From contig JBEPVF010000012.1 of NCBI GenBank assembly GCA_041691135.1, forward strand, positions 1 to 47,019: 47,019 nucleotides of DNA. The letters are read 5' to 3'. The DNA is from Candidatus Peribacteria bacterium (GTDB lineage: Bacteria > Patescibacteriota > Gracilibacteria > Peribacterales > Peribacteraceae). The notes beneath the pieces were generated by a model. It worked only from the letters and a program-made list of their open reading frames with translations. It searched no databases and was not told the origin of the DNA. This document shows, in pieces, positions 19,252 through 34,767 of the stretch. The translations under genes and the position numbers were made by a program. The stretch's first letter is position 1. The number at the start of each line of letters is the position of its first letter.

Positions 19252-19308
19252 CTCCCTATTCTGAGATTCCGGGGCTCTGCTCCTTTTGTGTTTCCTCACC
19301 ATCATTGT

Positions 19309-21462
19309 ATGTCAGTCGCATCACTCGAAATATTCATTCCCGTCGTGGCCCTTGCCGGGCTCCTGTATTCACTCGTCTTTTGGAGCGGTGTTACTCATGC
19401 TCCGGATGGTAATGCTGCCATGCAAAAAGTGGCTGATGCCATTGCAACCGGTGCCCGCGCGTTCATTCGCCGTCAGTACCGCACGATCACCTTGCTCTCG
19501 TTGGCTGTCGGCGTGGCCATCATTCTGGTCTACGGACTGACCAGCGGTCACAACAATATCCTCGCCGGGGACGGCGTAGATCAGACAACCGCATCAGGTT
19601 GGCATAAAGGTTTGCAGGTCGGACTCTCGTTCCTGCTCGGTGCCTTCTTCTCGGGCTTGTCGGGCGTCGTGAGCATGGTCGTCGCCACCAAGGCCAACCT
19701 CAAGACAGCCGGTGCCGCACATAAAGGACTCAATGCAGCGCTACGGATGGCGCTGCGGGCCGGTGCTGTCTCGGCTCTGATCATCACGGCTCTGTCCATT
19801 CTGGGCGTGAGCGGTTTGTATCTTCTGTATGTCTACGTCTTCCATATCAGCCCATCGCAGATCCCCGCCCTCATCGTCGGTTACGGATTCGGCGCATCGT
19901 TCGTCGCACTGTTCGCGCAGCTGGGCGGCGGTATCTACACCAAGGCCGCCGACGTCGGCGCTGACCTGGTCGGCAAAATCGAAGCCGGTATTCCGGAGGA
20001 TGACCCGCGTAACCCGGCAGTGATCGCCGACCTCGTGGGCGACAACGTCGGTGACTGCGCCGGTCGCGGCGCGGACCTGTTCGAATCGATCTCGGCCGAG
20101 AACATCGGCGCCATGGTGCTGGGTGCGACATTGGCTCCCGTGTTCGGCGCACAGGCAATTTTGCTGCCGTTGGTCCTGGGTGTCTGCGGCATCGTCGCCA
20201 GCGTCATCGGCATCTACTTCGTCAAAGCCAAGGCCAATGAGTCGCCGATGAAAGCCATGCAACGCGGCTTCTGGGTGACGACCGCTCTGATGATTGTCGC
20301 GCTGTTCGTGACTACGCGCTTCCTGCTGGCGGGTGCCACCATTCACTATCTCGGTCGCACAGCCACCACCGTCGGCACGGATGCATGGCGCTGGTTCTTC
20401 CTGGCCGGACTCGTAGGTATCGCCACGAGCGTGGCCTTCGTCTATCTGACTGACTACTACACCGGCAAAGACTTCCGACCGGTACGATCGATTGCTGATG
20501 CATCGACCACCGGGCACGCCACGAACATCATCGCCGGCGTGGCCATCGGTATGGAATCGACCGGCCTGACTGTATTGAGCGTGTGTGCCGCCCTCCTTGG
20601 ATCGTTCTGGCTCGGCACGCACAGCGGCGTCCCTGCCGGCGGACTGTTCGGCACCGCCATCGCCACGATGGGCATGCTCTCGACCGTCACCTACATCCTG
20701 GCTATGGACATGTTCGGTCCGATCACCGATAACGCCGGCGGCATCGTGGAGATGTCGGGCGCATCGGAAGACATCCGAAAAGTGACGGATGAACTCGACG
20801 CCACGGGCAACACCACGAAAGCTCTGACCAAAGGCTACGCCGTCGGCTCAGCTGCCCTGGCCGCCTTCCTACTCTTCTCCGCATTCCTCAGCGAAGCCAA
20901 ATTGACGGTCGTGAACCTGGCCAGCGTGCCGGTATTCGTCGGCGCCTTCTTCGGCGCGATGGTTGTCTTCTTCTTCACCAGTCTTACGATCCGCGCCGTC
21001 GGCAAGGCCGCCGGTGTGATCGTCGAGGAAGTCCGCCGTCAGTTCCGCGAAAAGAAAGGTCTGATGGATGGCAGCGAACAACCCGACTACGCCGCCGCCG
21101 TCGACATCGCCACCAAGTCCGCGCTCCACGAAATGATTCTGCCCGGCATCGTGGCAGTCGCCGCGCCGATTCTCGTCGGCGTCACCCTCAAAGCCGAAGC
21201 CGTCGCAGGCATGCTCATGGTGAGCACCATCGCCGGTGTGCTCCTCGCCGCGTTCCTCAACAACGCCGGCGGTGCATGGGACAACGCCAAGAAGCTGATC
21301 GAAACCGGTTACCACGGTGGCAAGAAATCCCCGGCTCACCAGGCATCGGTGACTGGCGATACCGTTGGCGATCCGTTCAAGGACACCGCCGGTCCGTCAC
21401 TCCATGTGCTCATCAAACTGTTCAGCACACTGACGTTGGCATTGGCGGCGTTGTTTATGTAG
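19309..21462 (+). CDS. hppA: Membrane-bound proton-translocating pyrophosphatase, K+-independent type
   Basis: DVGADLVGKIEAGIPEDDPRN, DNVGD, DNAGG, GNTTKA, WDNAKK and DTVGDPFKD motifs. Confidence 0.96.
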   Translation: MSVASLEIFIPVVALAGLLYSLVFWSGVTHAPDGNAAMQKVADAIATGARAFIRRQYRTITLLSLAVGVAIILVYGLTSGHNNILAGDGVDQTTASGWHKGLQVGLSFLLGAFFSGLSGVVSMVVATKANLKTAGAAHKGLNAALRMALRAGAVSALIITALSILGVSGLYLLYVYVFHISPSQIPALIVGYGFGASFVALFAQLGGGIYTKAADVGADLVGKIEAGIPEDDPRNPAVIADLVGDNVGDCAGRGADLFESISAENIGAMVLGATLAPVFGAQAILLPLVLGVCGIVASVIGIYFVKAKANESPMKAMQRGFWVTTALMIVALFVTTRFLLAGATIHYLGRTATTVGTDAWRWFFLAGLVGIATSVAFVYLTDYYTGKDFRPVRSIADASTTGHATNIIAGVAIGMESTGLTVLSVCAALLGSFWLGTHSGVPAGGLFGTAIATMGMLSTVTYILAMDMFGPITDNAGGIVEMSGASEDIRKVTDELDATGNTTKALTKGYAVGSAALAAFLLFSAFLSEAKLTVVNLASVPVFVGAFFGAMVVFFFTSLTIRAVGKAAGVIVEEVRRQFREKKGLMDGSEQPDYAAAVDIATKSALHEMILPGIVAVAAPILVGVTLKAEAVAGMLMVSTIAGVLLAAFLNNAGGAWDNAKKLIETGYHGGKKSPAHQASVTGDTVGDPFKDTAGPSLHVLIKLFSTLTLALAALFM

Positions 21463-21869: not shown

Positions 21870-22685
21870 ATGAATCAGCCTCTCGTCTCCGCACTGGTCC
21901 TGAACTACCGCTCGCCTGCCGAGACGGTACGGTGCGTGAAGGCACTTCTGGCGCAGACTATCGCTGATCAACTCGAGATCATCGTGATCGATAATCATTC
22001 CAACGATGATTCGATCGGCCGCATTCGCAATAATCTACGAAGCTATCCGCAGGTACGCATCGTCGAGACGCCGCGGAACATCGGCTACGGCAAAGGCAAC
22101 AATCGAGGCGAAACGTATGCGCATGGCACCTATGTTTTGATCATCAACCCCGACAATGAACTCGAAGCGAATGGTATCGAGCAGATGGTTGACGCCCTGC
22201 AGCACGACCCGGCCATCGGCATCATCGGACCGAAGCTCATGCATCCCGACGGCACGCTGCGCGATTCGCAACGCAGCTTTCCGACTCTTCTGAATGTCTT
22301 CATCAAGCGCACGCCGCTTCGTCATCTGTTCCGCGAACGCATGGAGCACTATCTGCAATGGAATCACGACAGCAACCAGGTCCGCGACGTCGACTGGATC
22401 GCCGGTGCCTGCTTTCTCATTCGCCGCGATTTGTTCGGGCAGCTTGGCGGCTTCGATCCGCGATTTTTCCTGTTCTTCGAGGACACCGACCTCTGCCGCC
22501 GCGTGTGGCAGGCCGGCAAGCGCGTCGTGTACTTCCCATTGGTCCAGGCAACCGATCGCAAGAAACGCCTGAGTGACGGCGGATTTTTCGCAATCTTCAC
22601 CAAGTGGACGGTGCGGGAACATCTGAGAAGCGCCGTGCTGTATTTTTGGAAATGGCGGGGTCAATCTGCGAGCAGATCTCATTGA
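21870..22685 (+). CDS. Glycosyltransferase family 2 (rhamnosyltransferase WbbL-like)
   Basis: LVLNY, VIDNHSND, NIGYGKGNN, INPD, GACFLIRR and FFLFFEDTDLC motifs. Confidence 0.93.
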   Translation: MNQPLVSALVLNYRSPAETVRCVKALLAQTIADQLEIIVIDNHSNDDSIGRIRNNLRSYPQVRIVETPRNIGYGKGNNRGETYAHGTYVLIINPDNELEANGIEQMVDALQHDPAIGIIGPKLMHPDGTLRDSQRSFPTLLNVFIKRTPLRHLFRERMEHYLQWNHDSNQVRDVDWIAGACFLIRRDLFGQLGGFDPRFFLFFEDTDLCRRVWQAGKRVVYFPLVQATDRKKRLSDGGFFAIFTKWTVREHLRSAVLYFWKWRGQSASRSH

Positions 22686-23180: not shown

Positions 23181-23840
23181 ATGGACATGATTCCCCTGTC
23201 TGTTTCGGCGCGTGATGCGCAGAAAACGGCGAAGCAACTTCGCACGTCCGGCCACGTGCCATGCGTGGTGTACGGCAACGAGGTCGAAAATATGTCGCTT
23301 CAAGCCACTGCGAAGGATCTACATAAAGCCTTCCAGAAGGCCGGCGAAAGCACGCTGGTGGAATTGGAGATGGAGGGAAAAAAGATTCCCGTGCTATTCA
23401 AAGACATCAGCTTCCACCCCGTATCCGGCGCCGAGATGCATGCCGACTTCTACGCGGTAAATATGAAGGAGGAGATCGAGACAGGCGTGCCGATTCAGTT
23501 CGAAGGCGAATCGCCGGCAGTCAAAGACTTCTCTGCCATCTTGGTGACGGCTCAGGACGAAGTGACGGTTCGTTGTCTGCCAAGCAACCTGCCACATGCA
23601 CTCACGGTTAATTTGGAGAAACTGAAGGAATTCGGCGATGTGATCACGGTCGCCGATCTGACGCTGCCAAATGGCGTGACGATCACGAACAGCGCCGATA
23701 CCGTCTTGGCCACCGTACAGCAACCGCGCGAAGAGGAGGTCATTGCTCCGACGACACCTGCCGAAGGTGCTGATGCCGCCGCAACGGCTGAGGGTGCTAC
23801 TCCAGCGGAAGGTGCTGCAGAGGACAAGAAAGGCGAATAA
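23181..23840 (+). CDS. rplY: 50S ribosomal protein L25 / general stress protein Ctc
   Basis: LRTSGHVPCVVYG, HPV...HADFY, C-terminal Ctc domain and acidic tail. Confidence 0.95.
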   Translation: MDMIPLSVSARDAQKTAKQLRTSGHVPCVVYGNEVENMSLQATAKDLHKAFQKAGESTLVELEMEGKKIPVLFKDISFHPVSGAEMHADFYAVNMKEEIETGVPIQFEGESPAVKDFSAILVTAQDEVTVRCLPSNLPHALTVNLEKLKEFGDVITVADLTLPNGVTITNSADTVLATVQQPREEEVIAPTTPAEGADAAATAEGATPAEGAAEDKKGE

Positions 23841-23900
23841 CAAAAGCACACCGGTTGGTTGGCCAGTTGCTTTTTGCCGAACGATCGGCATGATGCCCGT

Positions 23901-24938
23901 ATGTCGAACTCACAGCGCACTGCTGCGCTTCTCGCGGTATTCACCTTTCTGGTCGGCGGACTTGGCGCCACGCAGCTCGTTCTTTCGACCCGCGCTCCGT
24001 CCGCTCTTGCCGATGAAGAAATCAACGATGGTTCGGCCGTGCAGTACCTGGCCAGTTTGCTACGAAGTACCGTTAGGCGCCGCCCCAAGCCAGTCACCAA
24101 GGCGAGCGTCAGTACGACTCGTCAGATGGTCGCCGTAATGATCGAAAATTCGGCCGACGCACGGCCGGTCATCAAAGGAATTGAGAAGGCCAAGATGGTC
24201 GGCGAGTTCACGGTGGAGGGCGGGATCACACGCCTCGTAGCGCTGTTCGACCGTGCTGATTTTCCGGATGTCGTCGGTCCGGTGCGTTCGATGCGCCTCT
24301 ATTTCGCACAGTCTTTTCTGCCCTACAGTTCAGCCATGCTCTTCGCCGGCTGGAGCCCGGATGCCGAAGCATTCATCGCCAAAACCGTACAGCCGCTCTT
24401 CTTCAATGGACTGCAATACGGTAACAACTTCTACCGCGACACGACGATCCCTGAACCGCATAACTACTTCACCAACCGGCAGAAAGTAGAAGATCTTCTG
24501 GCCAAACAAACATTGCGATCAGTCACATGGCCAGCCTTCACCACGCCAGAACGCACGCTTACCGGTTCGGCGGCCACCACCATCGACGTGAATTTTTACG
24601 CCCAGCGTTCGAACGAGCAGTATGTCTATCAACCAACTTCAGACTCCTACACCCATACGACCGGCCACGACATCGGCGCCTCTCATCCTTCGACATTCAT
24701 TGTCCTCGAAGTCCCCGTCACGGCAACCGGCGAAAAGGGCCGCATGACGATGGATCTCCTCCACGGCGGCAAACTCCTCTACTTCCGTCACGGCAAAGCC
24801 ATCACCGGTACCTGGTCCAAACCGAGCATCGAGCAAGTCTTCACTTTTGCCGACAACACTGGCGCACCATTACCGATGGGAGACGGACAGATATGGATCT
24901 TGGCATTGCCTGATGTAGGAAGGGTAAGTTGGAAGTGA
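23901..24938 (+). CDS. DUF3048 (YerB-like) exported protein
   Basis: AVMIENS.DARP, VEGGITRL, GPVRSMR and EPHN motifs; N-terminal TM segment. Confidence 0.88.
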   Translation: MSNSQRTAALLAVFTFLVGGLGATQLVLSTRAPSALADEEINDGSAVQYLASLLRSTVRRRPKPVTKASVSTTRQMVAVMIENSADARPVIKGIEKAKMVGEFTVEGGITRLVALFDRADFPDVVGPVRSMRLYFAQSFLPYSSAMLFAGWSPDAEAFIAKTVQPLFFNGLQYGNNFYRDTTIPEPHNYFTNRQKVEDLLAKQTLRSVTWPAFTTPERTLTGSAATTIDVNFYAQRSNEQYVYQPTSDSYTHTTGHDIGASHPSTFIVLEVPVTATGEKGRMTMDLLHGGKLLYFRHGKAITGTWSKPSIEQVFTFADNTGAPLPMGDGQIWILALPDVGRVSWK

Positions 24939-24981: not shown

Positions 24982-25266
24982 CTCTCCACTACACCCAGGC
25001 GGCCTTAAGCCGCCAAACCTCTTCGCCTGCTCGCTATTCCAGATAATGATCCCCTCCGACTATGTGGTGGGGATAAGTGGTTACAAGCCCTGCTGTCGCC
25101 AGCCCACAGGCGCGACAGCAGGGCGAGGTGGGTCATAGGCGGTGCGCTTCTTTTTGGTTCTTTTTCTTGTCGCGGGGAGACAAGAAAAAGAACACCAGTG
25201 GTGACTGATGCTGCTCATGTAGGAGAATATTTCAGACATCGCAGCCGAGGACGGCTGCTGCTACAG
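24982..25266. repeat. ~285-nt structured intergenic element, copy B
   Basis: Colinear with 8115-8427; identical 15-bp hairpin GTTCTTTTTCTTGTC/GACAAGAAAAAGAAC. Confidence 0.9.
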
Positions 25267-25273
25267 AGAATCA

Positions 25274-27658
25274 TTATTTGTCTTCATCCTTCCGCCTCAA
25301 AAACCCCGGCACCAACAACGGCGCTTTAATACCGGGCACTTTTTCAGCTAATTCCAAATCCTCAACCGCTACTTTACCGATGTACAGCCGCCGTAAATCA
25401 CCGCCATTTTGCACAAAATTCTCCACGGCGAGCTGGCCGCGGAAATACACCAGTCCTTTGGTGAAGCTGCCAACCTGGCTGGTATCACCCAATCCCCGCT
25501 TAAGTTCGATGGCTTTCGTCACCGCCTTCTCGGTCGTATAGCCCAGCTCCTTCTCCAAATACTGTCGTGTCTCGACGAATGGATGGTGCAAGCTGTACTC
25601 CACAGCCAGCACGCTGCGCGCCGGACCGTAGCGCTTGTCTTCGAACGGCGGAAGAATACGATTCTGGTTATACACGGCCAATCCTTCCTGCGTATCTAGA
25701 TAGTTGGCGAAGCCGCGCCGGAACAGTTCGTACGGCTGTTGCTCGCCATTTTCAAGTGTGAGCACATGTGTCTCGATCTCGTGCGCCACCAACGATGCCA
25801 CATGCTGTTTTGTAAATCGCGCGTCGCTGCGAATGTAGAGATGCTTCCAGCCCACGGTGCAATCGGCAATCAACGTATCACGGATGGTGACGTGCCAATC
25901 GTGCAATCCGTAGCGACGGAAATGTTCTTCGAACAGAGGAGCGGCGCGTTCGGCCGAGAGCCACTCTTTGGCCGGCGGCGGTAGTTCACAGGCAATGCGT
26001 GACTGCAAGGCGGCATCGGCTAGCAAGAGGAGATGCGCAGTCGGCGCGCCAAACAGCGCCTTCGATGCTTCGGTAAACCGGGCGGCATCACCGCGACTTT
26101 TGAGCGCCTCGAGGCGCATCACCAGCTCCAGACGTTTCTTTTTAAGCAACAATCCCAAGGGCGATTCGTCGATCGAGAGTGACCACAGGCGCTTCTCCAC
26201 ATCATCAGGATCGAATTCCAGCGCGGCGTATGTGAATATCGGCGTATAGAGCGGATCATCTATAATTCTCTGGCGCTCATCCTGAAGATTCAACGGTTTC
26301 AAATGCCGCAAGACCAGAAGATCACGATCGAACTGACTCAGGATCCGGTCGACGGAGCGAAGATCGGACACCACGCGCGTCGGCACAACCGTGTTATCGA
26401 CCGGTCGCCGCGACGGATCGATCAGAAAATCACGCAGATCACGCCGGCCGAGTATGGCTCGCACGCCGTCGATATTGATCGGCGACGATTCCACCACCGT
26501 CTGGATTTTGCGACCGCCCAGCGTGAACTTGGCCCGATACAAACCCGTTTCTTCATCGTGTTCGATGGCTTCCTGTTGCAGTAAATCCCGAATCAGATCG
26601 GGCGCGAACTGACTGCGTTCGTATACACCCGGTGCCAACGCCGCCCGCACTTTGATGGTGCTGCCGTCACCATGGATCAAAATGGATTCCTGCAATCCGA
26701 GGCGCGGCCGGTCATCGGTATCCTGTGATTTCTGCACGCGTTGACCGAACAGATCTTGGGCCAGGCGCACGCCTTTTTCGGGCGACCCGACATCGATGCC
26801 TTTTACGCGTTCCAAACGTGCCCGCAATGGCGCCAGATTCGCCAACTGCACGCCCAAACCGGCTCGTGCATTCACTTCCAGCAAGACAGGACCTTGATCT
26901 TCGTCGATCGTCAGATCCACCGCCAAATAGCCGATGTTCGTAATGGTCTGGATGCGCGACGCAATCAGCAGCAAGTCCTCCCAGAACGGAATGGGAATCC
27001 CCGCCACCGGCGCGCCGTGTGGCAGCTCTTTGATCAGATGATCGTACTGAAATCCATGCGTGGTGATTCCCTTTGCCAGATCGATGCCGATGCCGATCCC
27101 TCCCTGATGCACGTTCGCCTTGCCGCCGCTGAGTGCCGTGGGCACGCGCACCATCGCCATCACCGGCACCAGGTTGAAGACGATAATGCGAACATCGGGC
27201 AACCCGGCCGGACGAAACGGCGCAAATCCTTCGTGTGCCACCAGGATCTTCTCGAAGAACGCCGTATCCTCGCGGCCGTTCACCGAAAATTTTCCATCCA
27301 GAATATCTTCGATGTGTTCGCGAAGCCGTTCGTCGGTGATCGGCGTGCGACCGTTTTCGAAAAACACGCCGTTTTTTCGTCCTTTCAAAATCACGATCCC
27401 CTCGCCGCCGAAACCGTTGTTCGGTTTGAGAACGCATTCATCCGGCAGGCTGCCAAAATCGAATGCACGCAGCTGCACGCGATCTTCCACACGCGCATAA
27501 ATCTTCGCCACCGGAATGCCGCGCGCCGAAAGATACGCTTTCGACTTCAGTTTGTTATCGGCAAACGCAACCGCCTTCTTGGGATTATAGGGCTTGAGGT
27601 AGAGGAGATTCCTCGCATTCAGACCGAGAACGCCGTGATTGGAGAGGAAGGGAAACAT
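25274..27658 (-). CDS. Fusion of alpha-L-glutamate-ligase-like ATP-grasp, degenerate RimB-like retropepsin and DUF1704/MATCAP-like metallocarboxypeptidase
   Basis: LGLNARN, KPNNGFGGEGI, DVRIIV, KANVHQGG and LEVNARAGL (ATP-grasp); ILGRRDL.FLIDPS (retropepsin-like); HEIETH, QEGLAVY, FTKGLVYFRG and LYIGKV (peptidase). Confidence 0.88.
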   Translation of the reverse strand: MFPFLSNHGVLGLNARNLLYLKPYNPKKAVAFADNKLKSKAYLSARGIPVAKIYARVEDRVQLRAFDFGSLPDECVLKPNNGFGGEGIVILKGRKNGVFFENGRTPITDERLREHIEDILDGKFSVNGREDTAFFEKILVAHEGFAPFRPAGLPDVRIIVFNLVPVMAMVRVPTALSGGKANVHQGGIGIGIDLAKGITTHGFQYDHLIKELPHGAPVAGIPIPFWEDLLLIASRIQTITNIGYLAVDLTIDEDQGPVLLEVNARAGLGVQLANLAPLRARLERVKGIDVGSPEKGVRLAQDLFGQRVQKSQDTDDRPRLGLQESILIHGDGSTIKVRAALAPGVYERSQFAPDLIRDLLQQEAIEHDEETGLYRAKFTLGGRKIQTVVESSPINIDGVRAILGRRDLRDFLIDPSRRPVDNTVVPTRVVSDLRSVDRILSQFDRDLLVLRHLKPLNLQDERQRIIDDPLYTPIFTYAALEFDPDDVEKRLWSLSIDESPLGLLLKKKRLELVMRLEALKSRGDAARFTEASKALFGAPTAHLLLLADAALQSRIACELPPPAKEWLSAERAAPLFEEHFRRYGLHDWHVTIRDTLIADCTVGWKHLYIRSDARFTKQHVASLVAHEIETHVLTLENGEQQPYELFRRGFANYLDTQEGLAVYNQNRILPPFEDKRYGPARSVLAVEYSLHHPFVETRQYLEKELGYTTEKAVTKAIELKRGLGDTSQVGSFTKGLVYFRGQLAVENFVQNGGDLRRLYIGKVAVEDLELAEKVPGIKAPLLVPGFLRRKDEDK

Positions 27659-27719
27659 ACGGGAATGATCAGCGATACGTGATCAGTGGTCACCTTGAGG
27701 AGAGCGAAAGGTCGAAGGA

Positions 27720-29234
27720 TTATTCTTCTTGCAAATGACGGAACAGTTCCCTAAATCGGAAATATTCCACGATTCTGAGGCCGGTCCATTTTCCCAGAAA
27801 CACATTGATGAACAGCGTGAGCAGAATGAGTTCCGGATAGGCAAGAATCAGCGACTGGAACGATGTCCACTGGACGATGAGCACGCACAGCAGCGCCGAT
27901 AAGATCGTCTGTCCCACGCTGAACACCGCGCCGATGAAACCCTTTTCGGTCTTGGCAGTGAGGAAACTTTCGCCGAGCGTAGAGAGGATCAGTAGGATGA
28001 AGATGCTATCGCGCGAGAGGATGATGCCGAACGCCGCGCCAATGCTGAGCAAGACGAGAAGTGTGATACTCACGGCGGTGAGAATGATCGCCACTTTGGG
28101 AATGTAGAGCAGGCGAAAACGCTGCATCGCCGCGCGCGTCAGATACCCCGTCGCCAAGATGAAAATGAGGAAAAGCAATCCAACCCACCAGCCCAGCGCC
28201 AGGAAGCTGAGAGCCACGATAGATGGCGCAAACAAGCCAAAAGTCGTGAGTCCTACCACCTGCCGCAACAGCGCCAGAATCGTCGCAATCACCGGCAACA
28301 TCAGCAGCAGGACGATGCTCTGACTCGAGACACCTTGGATGAGCATGTAGTTCACCAGCCACGACAGGACGTTCCACGGCCGTATCGAGACAGTGGTACT
28401 GTCGAGTACCAGGTAATCGATGCCACGCTCCTTGGCCGACACCAGAAAACTTTCACTGTTTGGGGACAGTAAGAAAGATCCCAATGCTTCGACACGCGTG
28501 AGGATGATGCGCTTGGGTTGCAGCACCGAGAACGGACCGTTGGCTGCACGTGCCAGCGTGTGCAAGTTGTGCTCGGTCACCAGGACGATTGTCTGCTGAT
28601 GCATTTCGCTCAGCCCATCGACATTGTTCTTCACCGCTTCCATCAGTGCCTGTAACGCCGGAATACCTTCGGTCCACAGAATGACCGAATCGGCATTGCG
28701 GAAAATCGTCTCGTCCTGCGCGAGCAACGTCGCGAGCACTTCTTCGGGTCGGCGCGACAACGATGCCTCAGGCAGATTCAGCACGCGAAGATACGTCCCC
28801 GCTTGCTGGGCCGCATTCACCTGATAACTCAAACTGCTGGCCGGCACCGTCGCATCGGCGATCATCACGATTTTGCGACGATACGCGATCACCTGATGCA
28901 CCGCTTCGGACCGCAATTCCGTTCCATTCTGCGACCACGTCATCACCAACCGGAATGTGAGTGTACCGGGTTGTTCGGGCGTGAAGATGGCATCGACTGC
29001 GCGGCTGATGGGATCTTTGCGTCCCTCCACGAACCACTCGTATTTTACCGGCCCGGGCGGGGCCAGACTTTTGGACGCATTCAGAATCATCGTACGAACC
29101 ACCGGATTATCGTCGGGACCGTCGATGATGGCTTGCAACACGGGAGTGGGCAGCACCGTATCCCCCGTCGCAGCCAGAGCGGCAACCGGACTGATCAGGG
29201 CGAGAGCAAAAAGGAGAGGGAGGAGACGATTCAT
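27720..29234 (-). CDS. 7TM_transglut-family membrane protein with signal peptide and PKD-like N-terminal domain
   Basis: LLMLPVIAT..ALLRQVVGLTTFGLFAP, YPEL and GKWTGLRIVEYFRF match the 7TM domain found next to alpha-L-glutamate ligase-like genes. Confidence 0.85.
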   Translation of the reverse strand: MNRLLPLLFALALISPVAALAATGDTVLPTPVLQAIIDGPDDNPVVRTMILNASKSLAPPGPVKYEWFVEGRKDPISRAVDAIFTPEQPGTLTFRLVMTWSQNGTELRSEAVHQVIAYRRKIVMIADATVPASSLSYQVNAAQQAGTYLRVLNLPEASLSRRPEEVLATLLAQDETIFRNADSVILWTEGIPALQALMEAVKNNVDGLSEMHQQTIVLVTEHNLHTLARAANGPFSVLQPKRIILTRVEALGSFLLSPNSESFLVSAKERGIDYLVLDSTTVSIRPWNVLSWLVNYMLIQGVSSQSIVLLLMLPVIATILALLRQVVGLTTFGLFAPSIVALSFLALGWWVGLLFLIFILATGYLTRAAMQRFRLLYIPKVAIILTAVSITLLVLLSIGAAFGIILSRDSIFILLILSTLGESFLTAKTEKGFIGAVFSVGQTILSALLCVLIVQWTSFQSLILAYPELILLTLFINVFLGKWTGLRIVEYFRFRELFRHLQEE

Positions 29235-29293: not shown

Positions 29294-29686
29294 TCAGGCA
29301 GCCGGACGCGCGCGCTTGCCGAAGGCAAACATCGAACTGCGCTTCTTGCGATCAACCATCTTTTCCTTGTAACGCTTGATCTGCGGCTCCAGTTTTTCGA
29401 TACAACGATCTAACGCATCAATCGGATTGGGGCGGCGCGACTCGGCGCGGAGCTTCTTGTGCGGCAATTCCACCGTGATCATCACCTTCACCTGATCACG
29501 CTCTTTTTTGGTGGCCCGCCGCTCGGCTTCGACCCGAATCGAAGACGCCGGATCACGCAGGCTCTTACAGTACGTCGCCAACTTCCCGATCTTCCGGGCC
29601 AGGAGGATCAAGTCGTCGCTGGTGTACCGGACCCCTTTTTCAAAATGTTCCACATGAATCCCCGTTTCAGGCTGTTTTGCTGCCAT
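29294..29686 (-). CDS. hpf: Ribosome hibernation promoting factor (short HPF/RaiA)
   Basis: RKIGKL and LRAES...IDALDRCIEKLEPQIKRYKEK motifs. Confidence 0.88.
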   Translation of the reverse strand: MAAKQPETGIHVEHFEKGVRYTSDDLILLARKIGKLATYCKSLRDPASSIRVEAERRATKKERDQVKVMITVELPHKKLRAESRRPNPIDALDRCIEKLEPQIKRYKEKMVDRKKRSSMFAFGKRARPAA

Positions 29687-29780: not shown

Positions 29781-29806
29781 TATTGGAATTCTTCACACAA
29801 ATACCT

Positions 29807-31102
29807 ATGGCAGCTCCCGCAGGAATACCGCCGGAAAATCTGTTTGATAGGGCAGTGACTGAACTTGGGAAAATAAAGGACAACGTAGTAAATAAATTGC
29901 CTCTTACAGACGATACGGTCAAGGAAGCAGGCAAGCATATTTCGTCTGCCAGAGATCACATTAAGAAAGCTACAAAAGAGCGCTGGCATGAGCTTCAATC
30001 GCATATAGAAACCATCCAGCAGGCAGCTGAAGGAAAAATCGACGTAAACGTATTACAGGAGGAAGTAGGAAAACGTGTGATTAGCCTTATGGATGCCGCA
30101 CGTGCGAACATGAGCGATATTTTAGACACGACAACGTCCACTGCTGCGTCAGCGCAAGAAGGATTGACCGGCCTGCTCGCCAAAGGAATGGAGCAGTGGG
30201 AAAAGGTATCGCAGAAAGTCATGGATTTTGCCGCCTCGATCGGTGCCGGCGGGCTGAATCAAATTGCCGATTTTCTCAAAATGATCGGCAGTCCCTGGGC
30301 CGAAACGGTCCGCAGTTTCGCCGAAACTCCGGCCCTGAAGCTGCGAGCAGTGTACAAAATGCTAGAAAAGGAAAATGACCTGAACTTCCTGCGCGCAACA
30401 AATGACAGCGATACATTCAACGACATTCTGACGATTTATACCGGCGTTGAATTCAACAAAGAACAGCGTCGCAAAACACCGCCCAATGATCCTAAGAATG
30501 CAGCTATGACCAAAGACCAGTTCTTTGAAATGCTCAAAACAAAGTTACTGGCAACAAAGGGAGCCAGACCGGCAACTCTTCTCTCGGATGTCAAAAAAGA
30601 GGCAGTGATCTACAGCAACGACTTTCCCCTGCCCATTGCACCAGCACCCGCCGTCGCACCGCCTGCTCCTGCACCCGTACCTCCGGTTGCGCCAGCACCG
30701 GCACCAGCTCCTCCGGCAGCTCCAGCTGCGGCCCCTGGCGGCGTAGAAAAAGATTTGATTGGAAATAATGTACCAGTCGAGGGCCATATCGCGATGGTAG
30801 ATGGACCCCGTGGAATTGTTCTCATAGATGGTGCAAAAAGATGGAGACTCGAAGGACGAGGTGCTATGGGCGTCAAACTTTCTGTAGAAATTTTGGAAGC
30901 AAAACTAACTTCCGATGGGAACTTGAGCTTTAAATTGAAGCACCCTGTAAGCGGAGAACTCATTACAAAAACTATTCCTAAACCGAAGGTTGGAGAGCTT
31001 ATTACCTATCTTTCGAACGATGCCAACACTGAATACCCCCTACCAAACATCGACGCGAGTGGGGCTGCCCTGCCTCCTACTGCATTTTTCGTAAAATTCT
31101 AA
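29807..31102 (+). CDS. Hypothetical protein (helical N-terminal part, Pro/Ala linker, beta-rich C-terminal domain)
   Basis: Long ORF with APAPAVAPPAPAP linker; no family recognised. Confidence 0.8.
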   Translation: MAAPAGIPPENLFDRAVTELGKIKDNVVNKLPLTDDTVKEAGKHISSARDHIKKATKERWHELQSHIETIQQAAEGKIDVNVLQEEVGKRVISLMDAARANMSDILDTTTSTAASAQEGLTGLLAKGMEQWEKVSQKVMDFAASIGAGGLNQIADFLKMIGSPWAETVRSFAETPALKLRAVYKMLEKENDLNFLRATNDSDTFNDILTIYTGVEFNKEQRRKTPPNDPKNAAMTKDQFFEMLKTKLLATKGARPATLLSDVKKEAVIYSNDFPLPIAPAPAVAPPAPAPVPPVAPAPAPAPPAAPAAAPGGVEKDLIGNNVPVEGHIAMVDGPRGIVLIDGAKRWRLEGRGAMGVKLSVEILEAKLTSDGNLSFKLKHPVSGELITKTIPKPKVGELITYLSNDANTEYPLPNIDASGAALPPTAFFVKF

Positions 31103-31506
31103 TGACCGAAGTAAACGCATCATCTTCACCAGCAGAAACCGTTCTCCCTCAGCATCTTCAGGAATTCTGGAAACTGACGAAGGAGCTTGATGCGGCGGTG
31201 CGCATTAACAATGCCGAGGAGCAAGCAAAGGTGAATGAGCGACTCACATTTTTACTGGGTTCTCTATCCCCCGCTGAACGTGCCCAGATTCTTTCGGCGA
31301 TTGAACAGGAAGGTGTATCGGCAAAGATCGCCTATACGCGCAGCAGCGCCCGAAAAAATATACTCAAGGTGATATATGGAGCAGGGCAAATTATGAGCGA
31401 TGCTGCCGATATGGTTCCCCCACTGCTCGCAAAAACGTGGGAGCTGATTTGGACGACGATCATGAAGATTAAAAAGGCTCATCAAGAAGCATCTGCTGCC
31501 GCTTAA
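31102..31506 (+). CDS. Hypothetical helical protein
   Basis: TAATG translational coupling with the upstream ORF; next ATG directly follows its stop. Confidence 0.75.
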   Translation: MTEVNASSSPAETVLPQHLQEFWKLTKELDAAVRINNAEEQAKVNERLTFLLGSLSPAERAQILSAIEQEGVSAKIAYTRSSARKNILKVIYGAGQIMSDAADMVPPLLAKTWELIWTTIMKIKKAHQEASAAA

Positions 31507-34500
31507 ATGTTTGACCACATCGTCAGCCACCGGCTGTCCACACTGATCTGCGAACACCGTTTGCTGTTTAATAAAATTGATGTGGTGCCGGAGACGAAAG
31601 TGGAACCTGCTGTCGAAAAAAAGCCGGATGTCGCGGCTGGAGCTCCTACCATTGAAGCGGCAATAGAGCCGCCACCCGTCAAAGGAATCATCGACGCAAA
31701 CTTACAAAATGCGGAGCAACGTGTCGACGCGAAGCTGGATGCTCGCCAGCAGAACCAAGGAAGGCGTGTCGACCTGCTCAAAAAAATTACAGAACCGCCG
31801 CAGCCGCTCAATGCCCAACCGGCTGTATCGGCCGAGCAAATGCAGGCCGTGCAGCAGACTGCCGAAAAACTGGCACAGAGCGCGCCGAACGCCACAGTCG
31901 AGCAAAAGAAGACATTTCTGGGACAGGTACAGAAGACGGTAACGGACGTGTACCAGGATTTCCGAACCGGATCCAATTGGAAAAAAGTCGGTTACATCAC
32001 CACAGGCGTCGTAGGCTTGCTGGCTGTACGTTGGCTCTGGAATAGCATCAGAAATACCATCGTCGGTACGGACGAAAAAGAGGGAGCGATCAGCAAAACA
32101 TTGGGATGGGGGTTGAGCCTGGCCGGGGCTGCCGCAGGTGTCTTGGGACTCAAAGTCGCATTTAATTTCGTCAACGATCCACTTGGATTCAAAAAAGCAA
32201 TGGACTCCGCTGGTAACCCGGATAATTCAAAGGAACCACGCATCGGTGACCGCCTCGGTCTGCCAGGCCTCGATACGGCCATCGACGCAGCAGGCGCTGC
32301 GGGCAATCTGGGATTAGGCGCAATGGCTGCCGGGACAGAGCAAGGCAAAAACGCTCTTCCTATCGGAGCGGATGTGGCACGGCTTGCTGAGTCATTCAAC
32401 GCTCTTCTATTGAGCGACAAACTGCCGGAAGCGTTTGCCCTGTTCGTTGCAAATGGCTGTATTTTGGCAAAAGATACGACCGGATTCGTATTGAATATAG
32501 GTGGGAAACAATGGAAATTGGCAAAAGAACTGCATGAAAAATTTGTAAAATACTGCGGCTTAGAAGAGAAGGCCGGCAATGTCCTCTTCGTATACGGTGA
32601 ATTCGGCGCCACATATTTGATGTCTAAAGCAACGTGGCAACTTATCCTGACTGGAAAATTGCGCATTCCCTCGCGTATGACGGCTCTTCGCCTTCTTGCC
32701 AGTCCTATAATGCTCGCACGCGACACGATGAGCGGCATGCTGACCATCGCGACACCCAACGGTCGTAAGCTCTTGGCGTTACAGTTAAAACGCTACGGCC
32801 TTGCCCCCCTCTTCCAAAGTGTGATGGATTACCGCGATGCGTTGTCCGGTGATCCACAGCGCTTTGCAAGAGCCATTGAAAAATGGGCGCGTCTAAAGGA
32901 AGCAGAGAACATCGTAGCATTGAACCAAGAGGGTTTTCTCAAGGGACTCTCGTCCAGGCAGGCACTGGAGGGAATCACACGCGAGAAAAATTTACTCTTA
33001 CAGCGCTTGCAAAAGGGGTTGGCAAAATTCAAAGGACGGACCGACTTACCCGAAGTGATTCAAAAACTGATGATGAAGGGCGAACTTAAAGAAATGCACA
33101 AATTTGAAGAATATCTGGATGCGACAAGAAATGAGTTGAAACTTGGCTCTGCCGTTGCAGACGATGCAATCGACATGGCTACCGCTGGGGCAAAAGGATC
33201 AGCTACTGAACTTGCCGACGATGTGATTGGGGACGCTGATGATGCGGTTAAAAAAACTCCTGTGGCCAAAGCGCCTCCCGCAAGCGGTGTCATTGATGAT
33301 ATTGCCTCCGAAGCAGACGACGTTCTTTCCAAGTTAAAGGGCCGCGCTTCGAATTTCGTCGACGCATTGGAAGCATCCAAACTCGATCCGGCTGACAAAC
33401 TGAGACGTGCCCATTCGTACACGCAATTGCTTGAAAAATACGGCGATGAAGCAGCTGACTTACTGAGTGACAGCGAGTTCATTGAAGCATTCGTATCCCA
33501 TGGCGATCACCCGTTGCTGCGCAAACTCATTCTCTCACGTGCAGCGAATGGAGCTGAAGGTCTGGAGGCAGGCATTCGGTCCTTCGCAAAATGGTCAAAG
33601 AGATTGAATTTCACGCTCAAGGGCGGCAAATATTTCCTACGTGGCTTAGGAGTCGTAGGAAGCGGATTCGAAATTGGCCAGGGTATTATGTCTCTCAGTG
33701 AAGCATATCAACTCACCCAACAGTTGGAAAAATTGGAAGCGGCTGGTCTGGATGTGGAGAAAGATGTTCAACTGGCTGCAGTCAGCACCATGCGCAATTG
33801 GAAAGCGGTTGCGGGCGTTGCGGGCGTTGCGGGTGGGGCGGTCGGACTGATTGGCTCATTGCCTTTCGTGGCTGCGGGAGTTGGAGCATGTGGCCCAGTT
33901 GCATTGGTCATGACACCGATTATCCTTGCGAAAGCCGGATACGAAATACGCCAAGCAGAATTGGAAACATTCAAGACGCCCGAGGAACAGCTAACGTATT
34001 TGTTCGAATTGATACAGAATAAATCGCCCGTCGAATCGCTGCGCGACGAAGAAGGACTCTCGTTGGCCGAGTACTTCGATATCTCGACAGGTTACTTGAA
34101 AATTGGATCACAAGGACTATCCAACCGCGCTTCGACACGCGAATGGCTGCATGCGCACATGCGTCAGCAAGAATGGCGCGAAAAAGTGATGCGAGTGATC
34201 GTGACGCGCGCCCTTATGGCTCGCGGAATCAATCTGCCAACGAGGACTGTACAGATCGGCAAAGAGCAGAAGCAAATCGCCAATATAGATAGCGTGTATC
34301 CCCTGATCGAAAACTACATTCGCATCAGTCTGTTTTCGGAAACCGGTGAAAAGGGAAATGCATGGGGCATGCGGCTCGGAGAAGTTGAAGATAAAGATCT
34401 TGAACATATCTTGAACGAAGCGATTGATCTGGCTGAACAAAAACTTCTGGTTGAACAGCTACAGAAAAGCGCTCCGAATTCACCGGAGCGAGTGACCTAT

Positions 34501-34767
34501 GCCGATCGGGAAACCTTCCTAGGCACAAAGTTCGACAAAACAAAGGCATCGGATTTTGCCAATGCCGATGTCTTCCGTCCGCTGCGCGAATCAACAATCG
34601 AGCCCATCGCACCGTACCGCTGGGAACGCTGGTTTGGTAGCGAGAAGGCAAAGCTGTATGATGGTTACCGTTTGCGCAGTAAAAAAGAAAGTGAGCAATG
34701 GGAGAAGCAAATCAATAAATTCAGGACTAAAATCTGGAGCTCCGAGGGCTCTTCATCCGCCGCATAG
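31507..34767 (+). CDS. Large (1086 aa) hypothetical protein with several Gly/Ala-rich hydrophobic helices
   Basis: Long ORF with segments YITTGVVGLLAVRWLW, LGWGLSLAGAAAGVLGL and AVAGVAGVAGGAVGLIG. Confidence 0.85.
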   Translation: MFDHIVSHRLSTLICEHRLLFNKIDVVPETKVEPAVEKKPDVAAGAPTIEAAIEPPPVKGIIDANLQNAEQRVDAKLDARQQNQGRRVDLLKKITEPPQPLNAQPAVSAEQMQAVQQTAEKLAQSAPNATVEQKKTFLGQVQKTVTDVYQDFRTGSNWKKVGYITTGVVGLLAVRWLWNSIRNTIVGTDEKEGAISKTLGWGLSLAGAAAGVLGLKVAFNFVNDPLGFKKAMDSAGNPDNSKEPRIGDRLGLPGLDTAIDAAGAAGNLGLGAMAAGTEQGKNALPIGADVARLAESFNALLLSDKLPEAFALFVANGCILAKDTTGFVLNIGGKQWKLAKELHEKFVKYCGLEEKAGNVLFVYGEFGATYLMSKATWQLILTGKLRIPSRMTALRLLASPIMLARDTMSGMLTIATPNGRKLLALQLKRYGLAPLFQSVMDYRDALSGDPQRFARAIEKWARLKEAENIVALNQEGFLKGLSSRQALEGITREKNLLLQRLQKGLAKFKGRTDLPEVIQKLMMKGELKEMHKFEEYLDATRNELKLGSAVADDAIDMATAGAKGSATELADDVIGDADDAVKKTPVAKAPPASGVIDDIASEADDVLSKLKGRASNFVDALEASKLDPADKLRRAHSYTQLLEKYGDEAADLLSDSEFIEAFVSHGDHPLLRKLILSRAANGAEGLEAGIRSFAKWSKRLNFTLKGGKYFLRGLGVVGSGFEIGQGIMSLSEAYQLTQQLEKLEAAGLDVEKDVQLAAVSTMRNWKAVAGVAGVAGGAVGLIGSLPFVAAGVGACGPVALVMTPIILAKAGYEIRQAELETFKTPEEQLTYLFELIQNKSPVESLRDEEGLSLAEYFDISTGYLKIGSQGLSNRASTREWLHAHMRQQEWREKVMRVIVTRALMARGINLPTRTVQIGKEQKQIANIDSVYPLIENYIRISLFSETGEKGNAWGMRLGEVEDKDLEHILNEAIDLAEQKLLVEQLQKSAPNSPERVTYADRETFLGTKFDKTKASDFANADVFRPLRESTIEPIAPYRWERWFGSEKAKLYDGYRLRSKKESEQWEKQINKFRTKIWSSEGSSSAA

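Follow-up and report, generated by a model that had tools for sequence, protein, structure and literature searches.

The 47,019-nucleotide contig JBEPVF010000012.1 of a Candidatus Peribacteria bacterium (GenBank assembly GCA_041691135.1), hereafter the window, encodes on its minus strand a protein, P0001, in which a predicted alpha-L-glutamate ligase-like ATP-grasp domain, a degenerate retropepsin and a predicted MATCAP/DUF1704 metallocarboxypeptidase are joined in a single chain. The gene directly upstream encodes P0002, a membrane protein with a seven-transmembrane (7TM) module of the RloB type whose predicted cytoplasmic tail ends in two glutamates (-EE). Judging from sequence, we propose that P0001 performs a cycle of ligation and carboxypeptidase trimming on acidic C-terminal tails, with the tail of P0002 as candidate acceptor, a reading to which we assign a probability of about one half.

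A first-pass annotation of this locus had described a 794-residue chain composed of a RimK-related ATP-grasp, a RimB-like retropepsin reading APG instead of DTG and a DUF1704 gluzincin with HEIETH at 25766-25783 and QEGLA, next to a 7TM protein. All of these parts were recovered: the open reading frame (ORF) at 25274..27658(-) has the three parts, the ATP-grasp exceeds the cut-off of PF14397, the gluzincin matches PF08014 with both motifs exactly placed, and the neighbour belongs to the PF14402 family. The retropepsin is missed when Pfam is applied to the window alone and was established through the PF05618 domains of relatives, so that the profile search named by that annotation as a possible refutation found DUF1704 directly and the retropepsin by way of intermediate sequences (coordinates in Table 1). 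P0001 follows two other minus-strand ORFs in series, a 130-aa HPF/YfiA-like protein and the 504-aa P0002, with gaps of 59 and 61 nt, and has neither a transmembrane segment nor a signal peptide. It has 1104 homologues in the database; the lengths of the best 120 all fall within 788-839 aa, and each of these carries PF14397 together with PF08014.

The ATP-grasp domain scored 189.5 bits against the curated PF14397 cut-off of 31.4, and the closest curated model was TIGR02291 ('alpha-L-glutamate ligase-like'), which aligned at full length (residues 5-306 to model positions 7-315 of 317, E 1.6e-72). Five residues, K78, D248, E261, N263 and R265, which we take to supply the ATP/Mg-binding lysine, aspartate and E-x-N functions, are at least 90% conserved among 49 diverse homologues. 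They are also retained in most of 39 loci, with few substitutions: the residue after D248 is phenylalanine in L044 and L066, and the R265 position varies in L069 and L065. A relative matched the RimK structures 7qyr, 5zct and 4iwx at E ~2e-3, and LLEVNARAG aligns with LVMEVN..PG of RimK. With its motifs intact, this predicted ligase domain looks catalytically competent.

The same can be said of the C-terminal domain, which scored 155.1 bits against the PF08014 cut-off of 27. Searches of the organism's own genome (a 1.74 Mb assembly, 92% complete) found PF08014 in a single copy. The sole solved structure matched by sequence was human KIAA0895L (MATCAP1/TMCP1; PDB 7z5g/7z5h, E 0.0056). H626, E627, H631 and E658 are invariant among the 49 diverse homologues, likewise G659 and A661, and the first three of these residues are also invariant in close homologues. 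The role of the HExxxH motif in TMCP/MATCAP enzymes has been described (PMC10499314, cited here from its accessible part), and with the motifs intact the predicted metallocarboxypeptidase domain looks catalytically competent.

Between these two lies a domain for which Pfam gave no match, either with the whole protein at E<=0.1 or with the domain alone (residues 300-440) at E<=10. A search of 1.8 billion representatives with the middle domain returned 15 matches, mostly of the same architecture; the multi-stretch matches P0128, P0135 and P0137 were discarded because Pfam showed them to be repeat or low-complexity proteins. When 29 homologous Patescibacteria ORFs were aligned, an intact AK[IV]DTGA stood at the same place, together with I[IV]GR[RK]DLK.FL[IV]DP. 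Five of ten relatives scanned exceeded the PF05618 cut-off (L026, 40.3 bits; L027, 39.1; L014, 37.2; L029, 34.7; L016, 33.2), two of them also having MATCAP. In hhalign, 42 Peregrinibacteria middle domains matched 14 DTG-bearing domains with 98.9% probability (E 2.8e-17), and the joint profile hit the PF05618-type structures 9g59 (E 6e-6) and 9g58 (E 5e-4) in the Protein Data Bank, followed by DDI1 retropepsins (0.026). G404, R406, D407, D414 and P415 are invariant across the 42 close homologues. On this homology, the middle domain is a PF05618 (RimB/RloA) retropepsin homologue, and since its DTG column reads APG, it is predicted to be catalytically dead; the D48A and D48N variants of RloA are inactive (Lormand et al. 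2025, PMC11957051, cited here throughout from its accessible part). The lysine two residues upstream of the catalytic aspartate, RloA K46, which contacts poly-Glu, is alanine in the window. The first-pass annotation had cast the dead protease as a reader; a scaffold would fit as well or better, because the poly-Glu-contact position is alanine while the C-terminal strand motif stays conserved. PF05618 had no match anywhere in the organism's own genome at E<=1, so no separate retropepsin gene was found.

Table 1. Coordinates of the features of the module and its immediate surroundings in the window.
Feature	Position	Strand	Evidence or remark
P0001	25274..27658	(-)	794 aa: ATP-grasp ligase + degenerate retropepsin + MATCAP metallocarboxypeptidase (predicted)
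ATP-grasp domain, RloC/RimK-related, residues 16-286	26801..27613	(-)	PF14397 ATPgrasp_ST, E 9e-56
Degenerate RimB/RloA-type retropepsin domain, residues 318-420	26399..26707	(-)	homology via relatives' PF05618 domains
A342-P343-G344 at the catalytic D-T/S-G column	26627..26635	(-)	alignments to relatives
ILGRRDLRDFLIDPS, conserved C-terminal retropepsin motif	26411..26455	(-)	aligns with I[IV]GR[RK]DLK.FL[IV]DP of active relatives
MATCAP/DUF1704 gluzincin domain, residues 471-772	25343..26248	(-)	PF08014, E 3e-45
HEIETH (HExxxH zinc and catalytic motif)	25766..25783	(-)	aligns with HEIGTH of KIAA0895L
QEGLA (third metal ligand Glu, EEG-type motif)	25676..25690	(-)	aligns with EEGLA of KIAA0895L
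P0002	27720..29234	(-)	504-aa membrane protein: signal peptide, PKD-like and uncharacterised outer domains, then RloB-type 7TM module
Predicted cytoplasmic C-terminal tail of P0002, 24 residues	27723..27794	(-)	ends -EE (27723-27728)
HPF/YfiA-like gene	29294..29686	(-)	130 aa; PF02482, E 2.7e-10; 59 nt upstream of the 7TM gene
Terminator-like hairpin with T run	25191..25212	(-)	directly past the P0001 stop; from a consensus scan alone, 10 sites found vs 5.2 expected

Sampling 301 genomes of the phylum gave a P0001 match in 101; of 201 genomes sampled from the class, 144 had one, nearly always as a 770-830-aa fusion, TGA-recoded lineages included. We examined 99 loci, the window and 98 fetched from sampled genomes, applying translation table 25 only to the nine whose matches held in-frame TGAs. 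As the survey of architectures and neighbourhoods suggested by the first-pass annotation, this found the ligase, the peptidase and the 7TM protein fused, adjacent or nearby across Patescibacteria. Four forms of linkage were seen: ATP-grasp with an active-type (DTG) retropepsin (e.g. L052-L055); the same with a fused MATCAP, both PF05618 and PF08014 exceeding their cut-offs (L043, L045); a separate adjacent MATCAP gene (L062-L065) or a divergent one (L056, L058, L059, L061); and ATP-grasp with a dead retropepsin and MATCAP, the arrangement of 52 of the 60 fused loci, the other eight keeping DTG or DSG. A separate canonical MATCAP gene accompanied five loci with DTG kept and one with DTG lost. 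No canonical MATCAP was seen in 13 loci with DTG kept, four of which have the divergent MATCAP gene directly downstream, and the 20 further loci keep DTG, three of them with a MATCAP gene nearby. Across these forms, ligase plus peptidase is the constant theme and which peptidase varies. In 83 of the 99 loci the gene immediately upstream, on the same strand, belongs to the PF14402 family, often with overlapping stop and start codons (36 of 38 loci with wide flanks, 26 of 40 with 2.5-kb flanks and 20 of 20 further loci). The fusion is thus a lineage trait and the two-gene module is conserved across Patescibacteria; together, family-level profile matches and lineage-wide conservation indicate that the domain assignments are not chance likenesses.

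Within this range the distribution is patchy: the sole other sampled genome of the window's genus (G105, 99% complete) had no match, and in the family 13 of 22 genomes had one. TGA-recoded homologues, found in several families of the class (e.g. G332:C2, G363:C6, G431:C6), keep the fusion and contain 10-55 in-frame TGA codons, in keeping with the TGA recoding of Gracilibacteria; among the nine TGA-recoded loci no 7TM gene was seen within 2.5 kb in L079-L081 and L088-L090, and one is present in L093-L095. One homologue, G376:C4:26769-29133, is split into overlapping ORFs (residues 5-537 and 521-789), possibly through a frameshift or assembly error. The divergent MATCAP paralogue (438-575 aa), which lies directly downstream of the ATP-grasp gene in the four loci named above, also occurs as a second copy nearby in L043 and L045-L047; it scored 40-70 bits with PF08014 in the three ORFs scanned and goes undetected when a single sequence is used for searching at E<1e-10.

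The upstream partner P0002 matched PF14402 (7TM_transglut) over residues 302-497 (E 1.3e-25; 90.8 bits, cut-off 25), and this module is present in 50 of 50 P0002 orthologues. The RloB model NF052267 covers the 7TM part only (46 bits vs a cut-off of 900). In the outer part, PKD domains were found in 45 of the 50 orthologues and a transglutaminase family in none. By these profile matches, P0002 is RloB-like in its 7TM part only, with an outer domain that is PKD-like and not an inactive transglutaminase. Its C-terminal tail is placed in the cytoplasm by hydropathy and the positive-inside rule. An -EE C-terminus was found in 38 of the 83 loci having a 7TM gene and in 114 of the best 120 database homologues of the 7TM protein, mostly as [KR]H[LM]QEE(E); in the organism's own genome it ends 5 of 1629 ORFs (0.3%), that is, four besides P0002. 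This tail is a new observation and the best candidate for the acceptor. A homologue of about 230 aa in L115 (G207:C8, 3244-3939(+)) has a genome-encoded acidic C-terminus, ...EEEEEEEREEE, and its neighbours are an ATP-grasp gene with an intact DTG and, on the other strand, a divergent MATCAP gene.

Trait pairs were counted over the 83 loci with a 7TM gene. All 38 -EE tails occurred with MATCAP and none without, and the non-EE tails divided into 19 with MATCAP and 26 without. An -EE end coincided with loss of DTG in 34 loci and with its retention in four, and the corresponding numbers for other ends were four and 41. Loss of DTG was itself restricted to MATCAP-bearing loci (38 of 57, compared with none of 26 lacking MATCAP). 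We regard the association of -EE with DTG loss and MATCAP as suggestive.

What follows on chemistry, on the acceptor and on how any signalling would run is our inference from these observations. Using ATP, the ligase would extend a free acidic C-terminus by amino acids, most likely glutamate, and the fused MATCAP-type zinc carboxypeptidase would take the added residues off singly. The ancestral poly-Glu-cutting retropepsin, whose catalytic aspartate is lost here, may survive as a structural, dimerising or binding module, MATCAP having taken over from it. The acceptor would be the -EE end of the cytoplasmic tail of the 7TM partner, and the length of this acidic tail would be written and erased by one enzyme. 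Precedents exist for the single steps: RimK glutamylates the C-terminus of RpsF, and RimB and RloA cleave poly-Glu of at least eight residues (PMC11957051), while TMCP/MATCAP enzymes trim the acidic tails of tubulin by single C-terminal residues and also shorten chains of poly-Glu (PMC10499314).

The first-pass annotation had likewise seen a writer and an eraser in one chain, controlled by the 7TM protein. Functional coupling of the parts is supported by synteny and by Pseudomonas genetics, in which deletion of rloB or rloC suppresses the loss of the retropepsins rloA1-3 (PMC11957051); the writer-eraser chemistry is a step that we still infer. As for the 7TM protein, the conservation of its -EE end means that a role as acceptor is no less likely than one in controlling the enzyme. 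The most specific version of the scheme, in which the fused ligase lengthens and MATCAP shortens the -EE cytoplasmic tail so as to give a membrane sensor a reversible 'tail code', is one that we put forward only tentatively.

Several observations weigh against the proposed cycle or its acceptor. Both NCBIfam models scored under their equivalog cut-offs, TIGR02291 with 244.2 bits (cut-off 314.2) and the QEGLA-family model TIGR02421, which aligned at full length, with 169.7 (cut-off 338.65). No 7TM gene was detected within the flanks searched in 16 of the 99 loci, which were left out of the tail counts (L042, L064, L072, L075, L079-81, L083, L088-92, L099, L101, L106), and 45 of the 83 loci with a 7TM gene keep the module without an -EE tail, so this tail is not a universal acceptor. 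The traits in question (-EE, DTG loss and MATCAP) are inherited in blocks, with only 7, 7 and 8 changes on the ATP-grasp-domain tree, and independent-pair sign tests on that tree were not significant (p 0.5-1). Finally, the Pseudomonas eraser RloA is periplasmic (PMC11957051); a cytoplasmic tail is thus not its substrate there, and an exported product is favoured for the related Rlo system.

This last point leads to the main rival, which we consider possible but rather unlikely: the ligase would make a free polymer, either poly-alpha-glutamate or some other short peptide, for the 7TM protein to export or anchor, and the peptidase domains would set its length or recycle it, as in an Rlo-like homeostasis of glutamate or poly-Glu instead of protein tagging. 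Free poly-alpha-Glu is among the products of RimK, free polyE is regarded by the Rlo authors as possibly a substrate of RloA, and the periplasmic site of RloA, which implies an exported product, fits such a polymer better (PMC11957051); the retention of the 7TM/ATP-grasp pair in the 45 loci with non-EE tails agrees with it as well. In P0001, however, both peptidase domains are fused to a ligase that is predicted to be cytoplasmic, so that any trimming would precede export, and a free polymer leaves unexplained both the near-invariant -EE among the best 120 homologues and its restriction to MATCAP loci.

Modification of another cytoplasmic protein, ribosomal or HPF-like, with the 7TM protein only anchoring or regulating the enzyme, appears improbable. 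It has a precedent in RimK/RimB, with RimK acting on S6 (PMC11957051), the HPF-like gene lies upstream on the same strand, and -EE also ends four other ORFs of the genome. Yet the organism's own S6 ends ...SDSTDL, and the HPF-like protein ends ...RARPAA and adjoins the module in just four of the 39 loci with wide flanks, the window and L034-L036, which share one family; HPF linkage was accordingly rejected as a conserved feature, and a ribosomal target is weakened on both counts. An action of the ATP-grasp on a small molecule or on a surface-glycan or cell-wall precursor, with an unrelated role for MATCAP, is very improbable: the Pfam name of PF14397 ('sugar-transfer associated') and a family-2 glycosyltransferase gene at 21870-22685(+) point that way, but this gene is on the other strand, ~2.6 kb off, and did not recur as a conserved neighbour; the partners that are conserved belong to two peptidase families acting on peptide tails, and of the curated models the RimK-related TIGR02291 comes closest.

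The remaining surroundings comprise, on the opposite strand, a DUF3048 protein (23859-24938(+)), ribosomal protein L25/TL5 (23181-23840(+)) and an H+-pyrophosphatase (19288-21462(+)), for none of which a conserved link to the module was seen. Divergent from the operon run three consecutive ORFs of 439, 134 and 1086 aa (29783-31102(+), 31102-31506(+) and 31507-34767(+)) with no Pfam match at E<=0.001. P0001-P0003 gave no match to the PADLOC defence-system models.

The proposed ligase/carboxypeptidase cycle can be set beside three known systems. With RimK-RimB the module shares a cytoplasmic RimK-clade ATP-grasp ligase and a PF05618 poly-Glu-cutting retropepsin; it differs in that ligase and retropepsin form one chain, the retropepsin is dead (APG), MATCAP is added and a 7TM gene lies upstream. 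The acceptor of RimK-RimB, the C-terminus of S6, ends in Glu-Glu, as does the candidate acceptor here; the S6 encoded in the present genome lacks an -EE end. With RloABC of Pseudomonas aeruginosa it shares a PF14402 7TM protein and a TIGR02291-type ATP-grasp in one operon, as well as a PF05618 retropepsin belonging to the system, a peptidase that, by the Pseudomonas genetics, works against what the other two genes produce (PMC11957051). RloA is secreted and separate, whereas the retropepsin here is fused, predicted to be cytoplasmic and inactive, and the sole PF05618-type copy found in the 92%-complete genome; the outer domain is PKD-like and not an inactive transglutaminase, and a MATCAP domain is present. 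The accessible part of the Rlo paper makes no mention of carboxypeptidases, fusions or Patescibacteria (PMC11957051).

The third system is the tubulin tail cycle of TTL/TTLL ligases and MATCAP/TMCP carboxypeptidases, with which the module has in common the peptidase family PF08014, its HExxxH motif and EEG glutamate, and acidic tails (PMC10499314). In both, an ATP-grasp ligase is paired with a carboxypeptidase, and the -EE end resembles that of detyrosinated alpha-tubulin. The ligase here is of the RimK/RloC clade and not TTL, both activities would reside in one polypeptide, and the candidate substrate is the tail of a membrane protein, so that the parallel is an analogy with shared peptidase ancestry and not a membership.

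All parts are of known families, and the logic of RimK/RimB and RloABC is already published. We found no publication on the three-domain fusion, on retropepsin decay alongside MATCAP, on a PKD-type 7TM partner or on the -EE tail, and a neighbourhood survey of 2009 may already contain an earlier description. The only bacterial proteins reported to be polyglutamylated in the accessible part of the Rlo paper are RpsF and SdeA (PMC11957051). If the 7TM tail is indeed the acceptor and carries a reversible code, it would bring the known kinds of polyglutamylated bacterial protein to just three, and the module would represent a forerunner, among prokaryotes, of the tubulin tyrosination/glutamylation cycle that employs the same carboxypeptidase family. 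In Pseudomonas the Rlo operon has effects on antibiotic tolerance and on biofilm, and a predicted ligase and eraser in one chain, together with a 24-residue -EE tail, could open the chemistry of the RloC/7TM family in vitro. The locus also shows that in bacteria the MATCAP family already occurs in partnership with a ligase of the ATP-grasp type and with an -EE end, which bears on the origin of the enzymes acting on tubulin tails.

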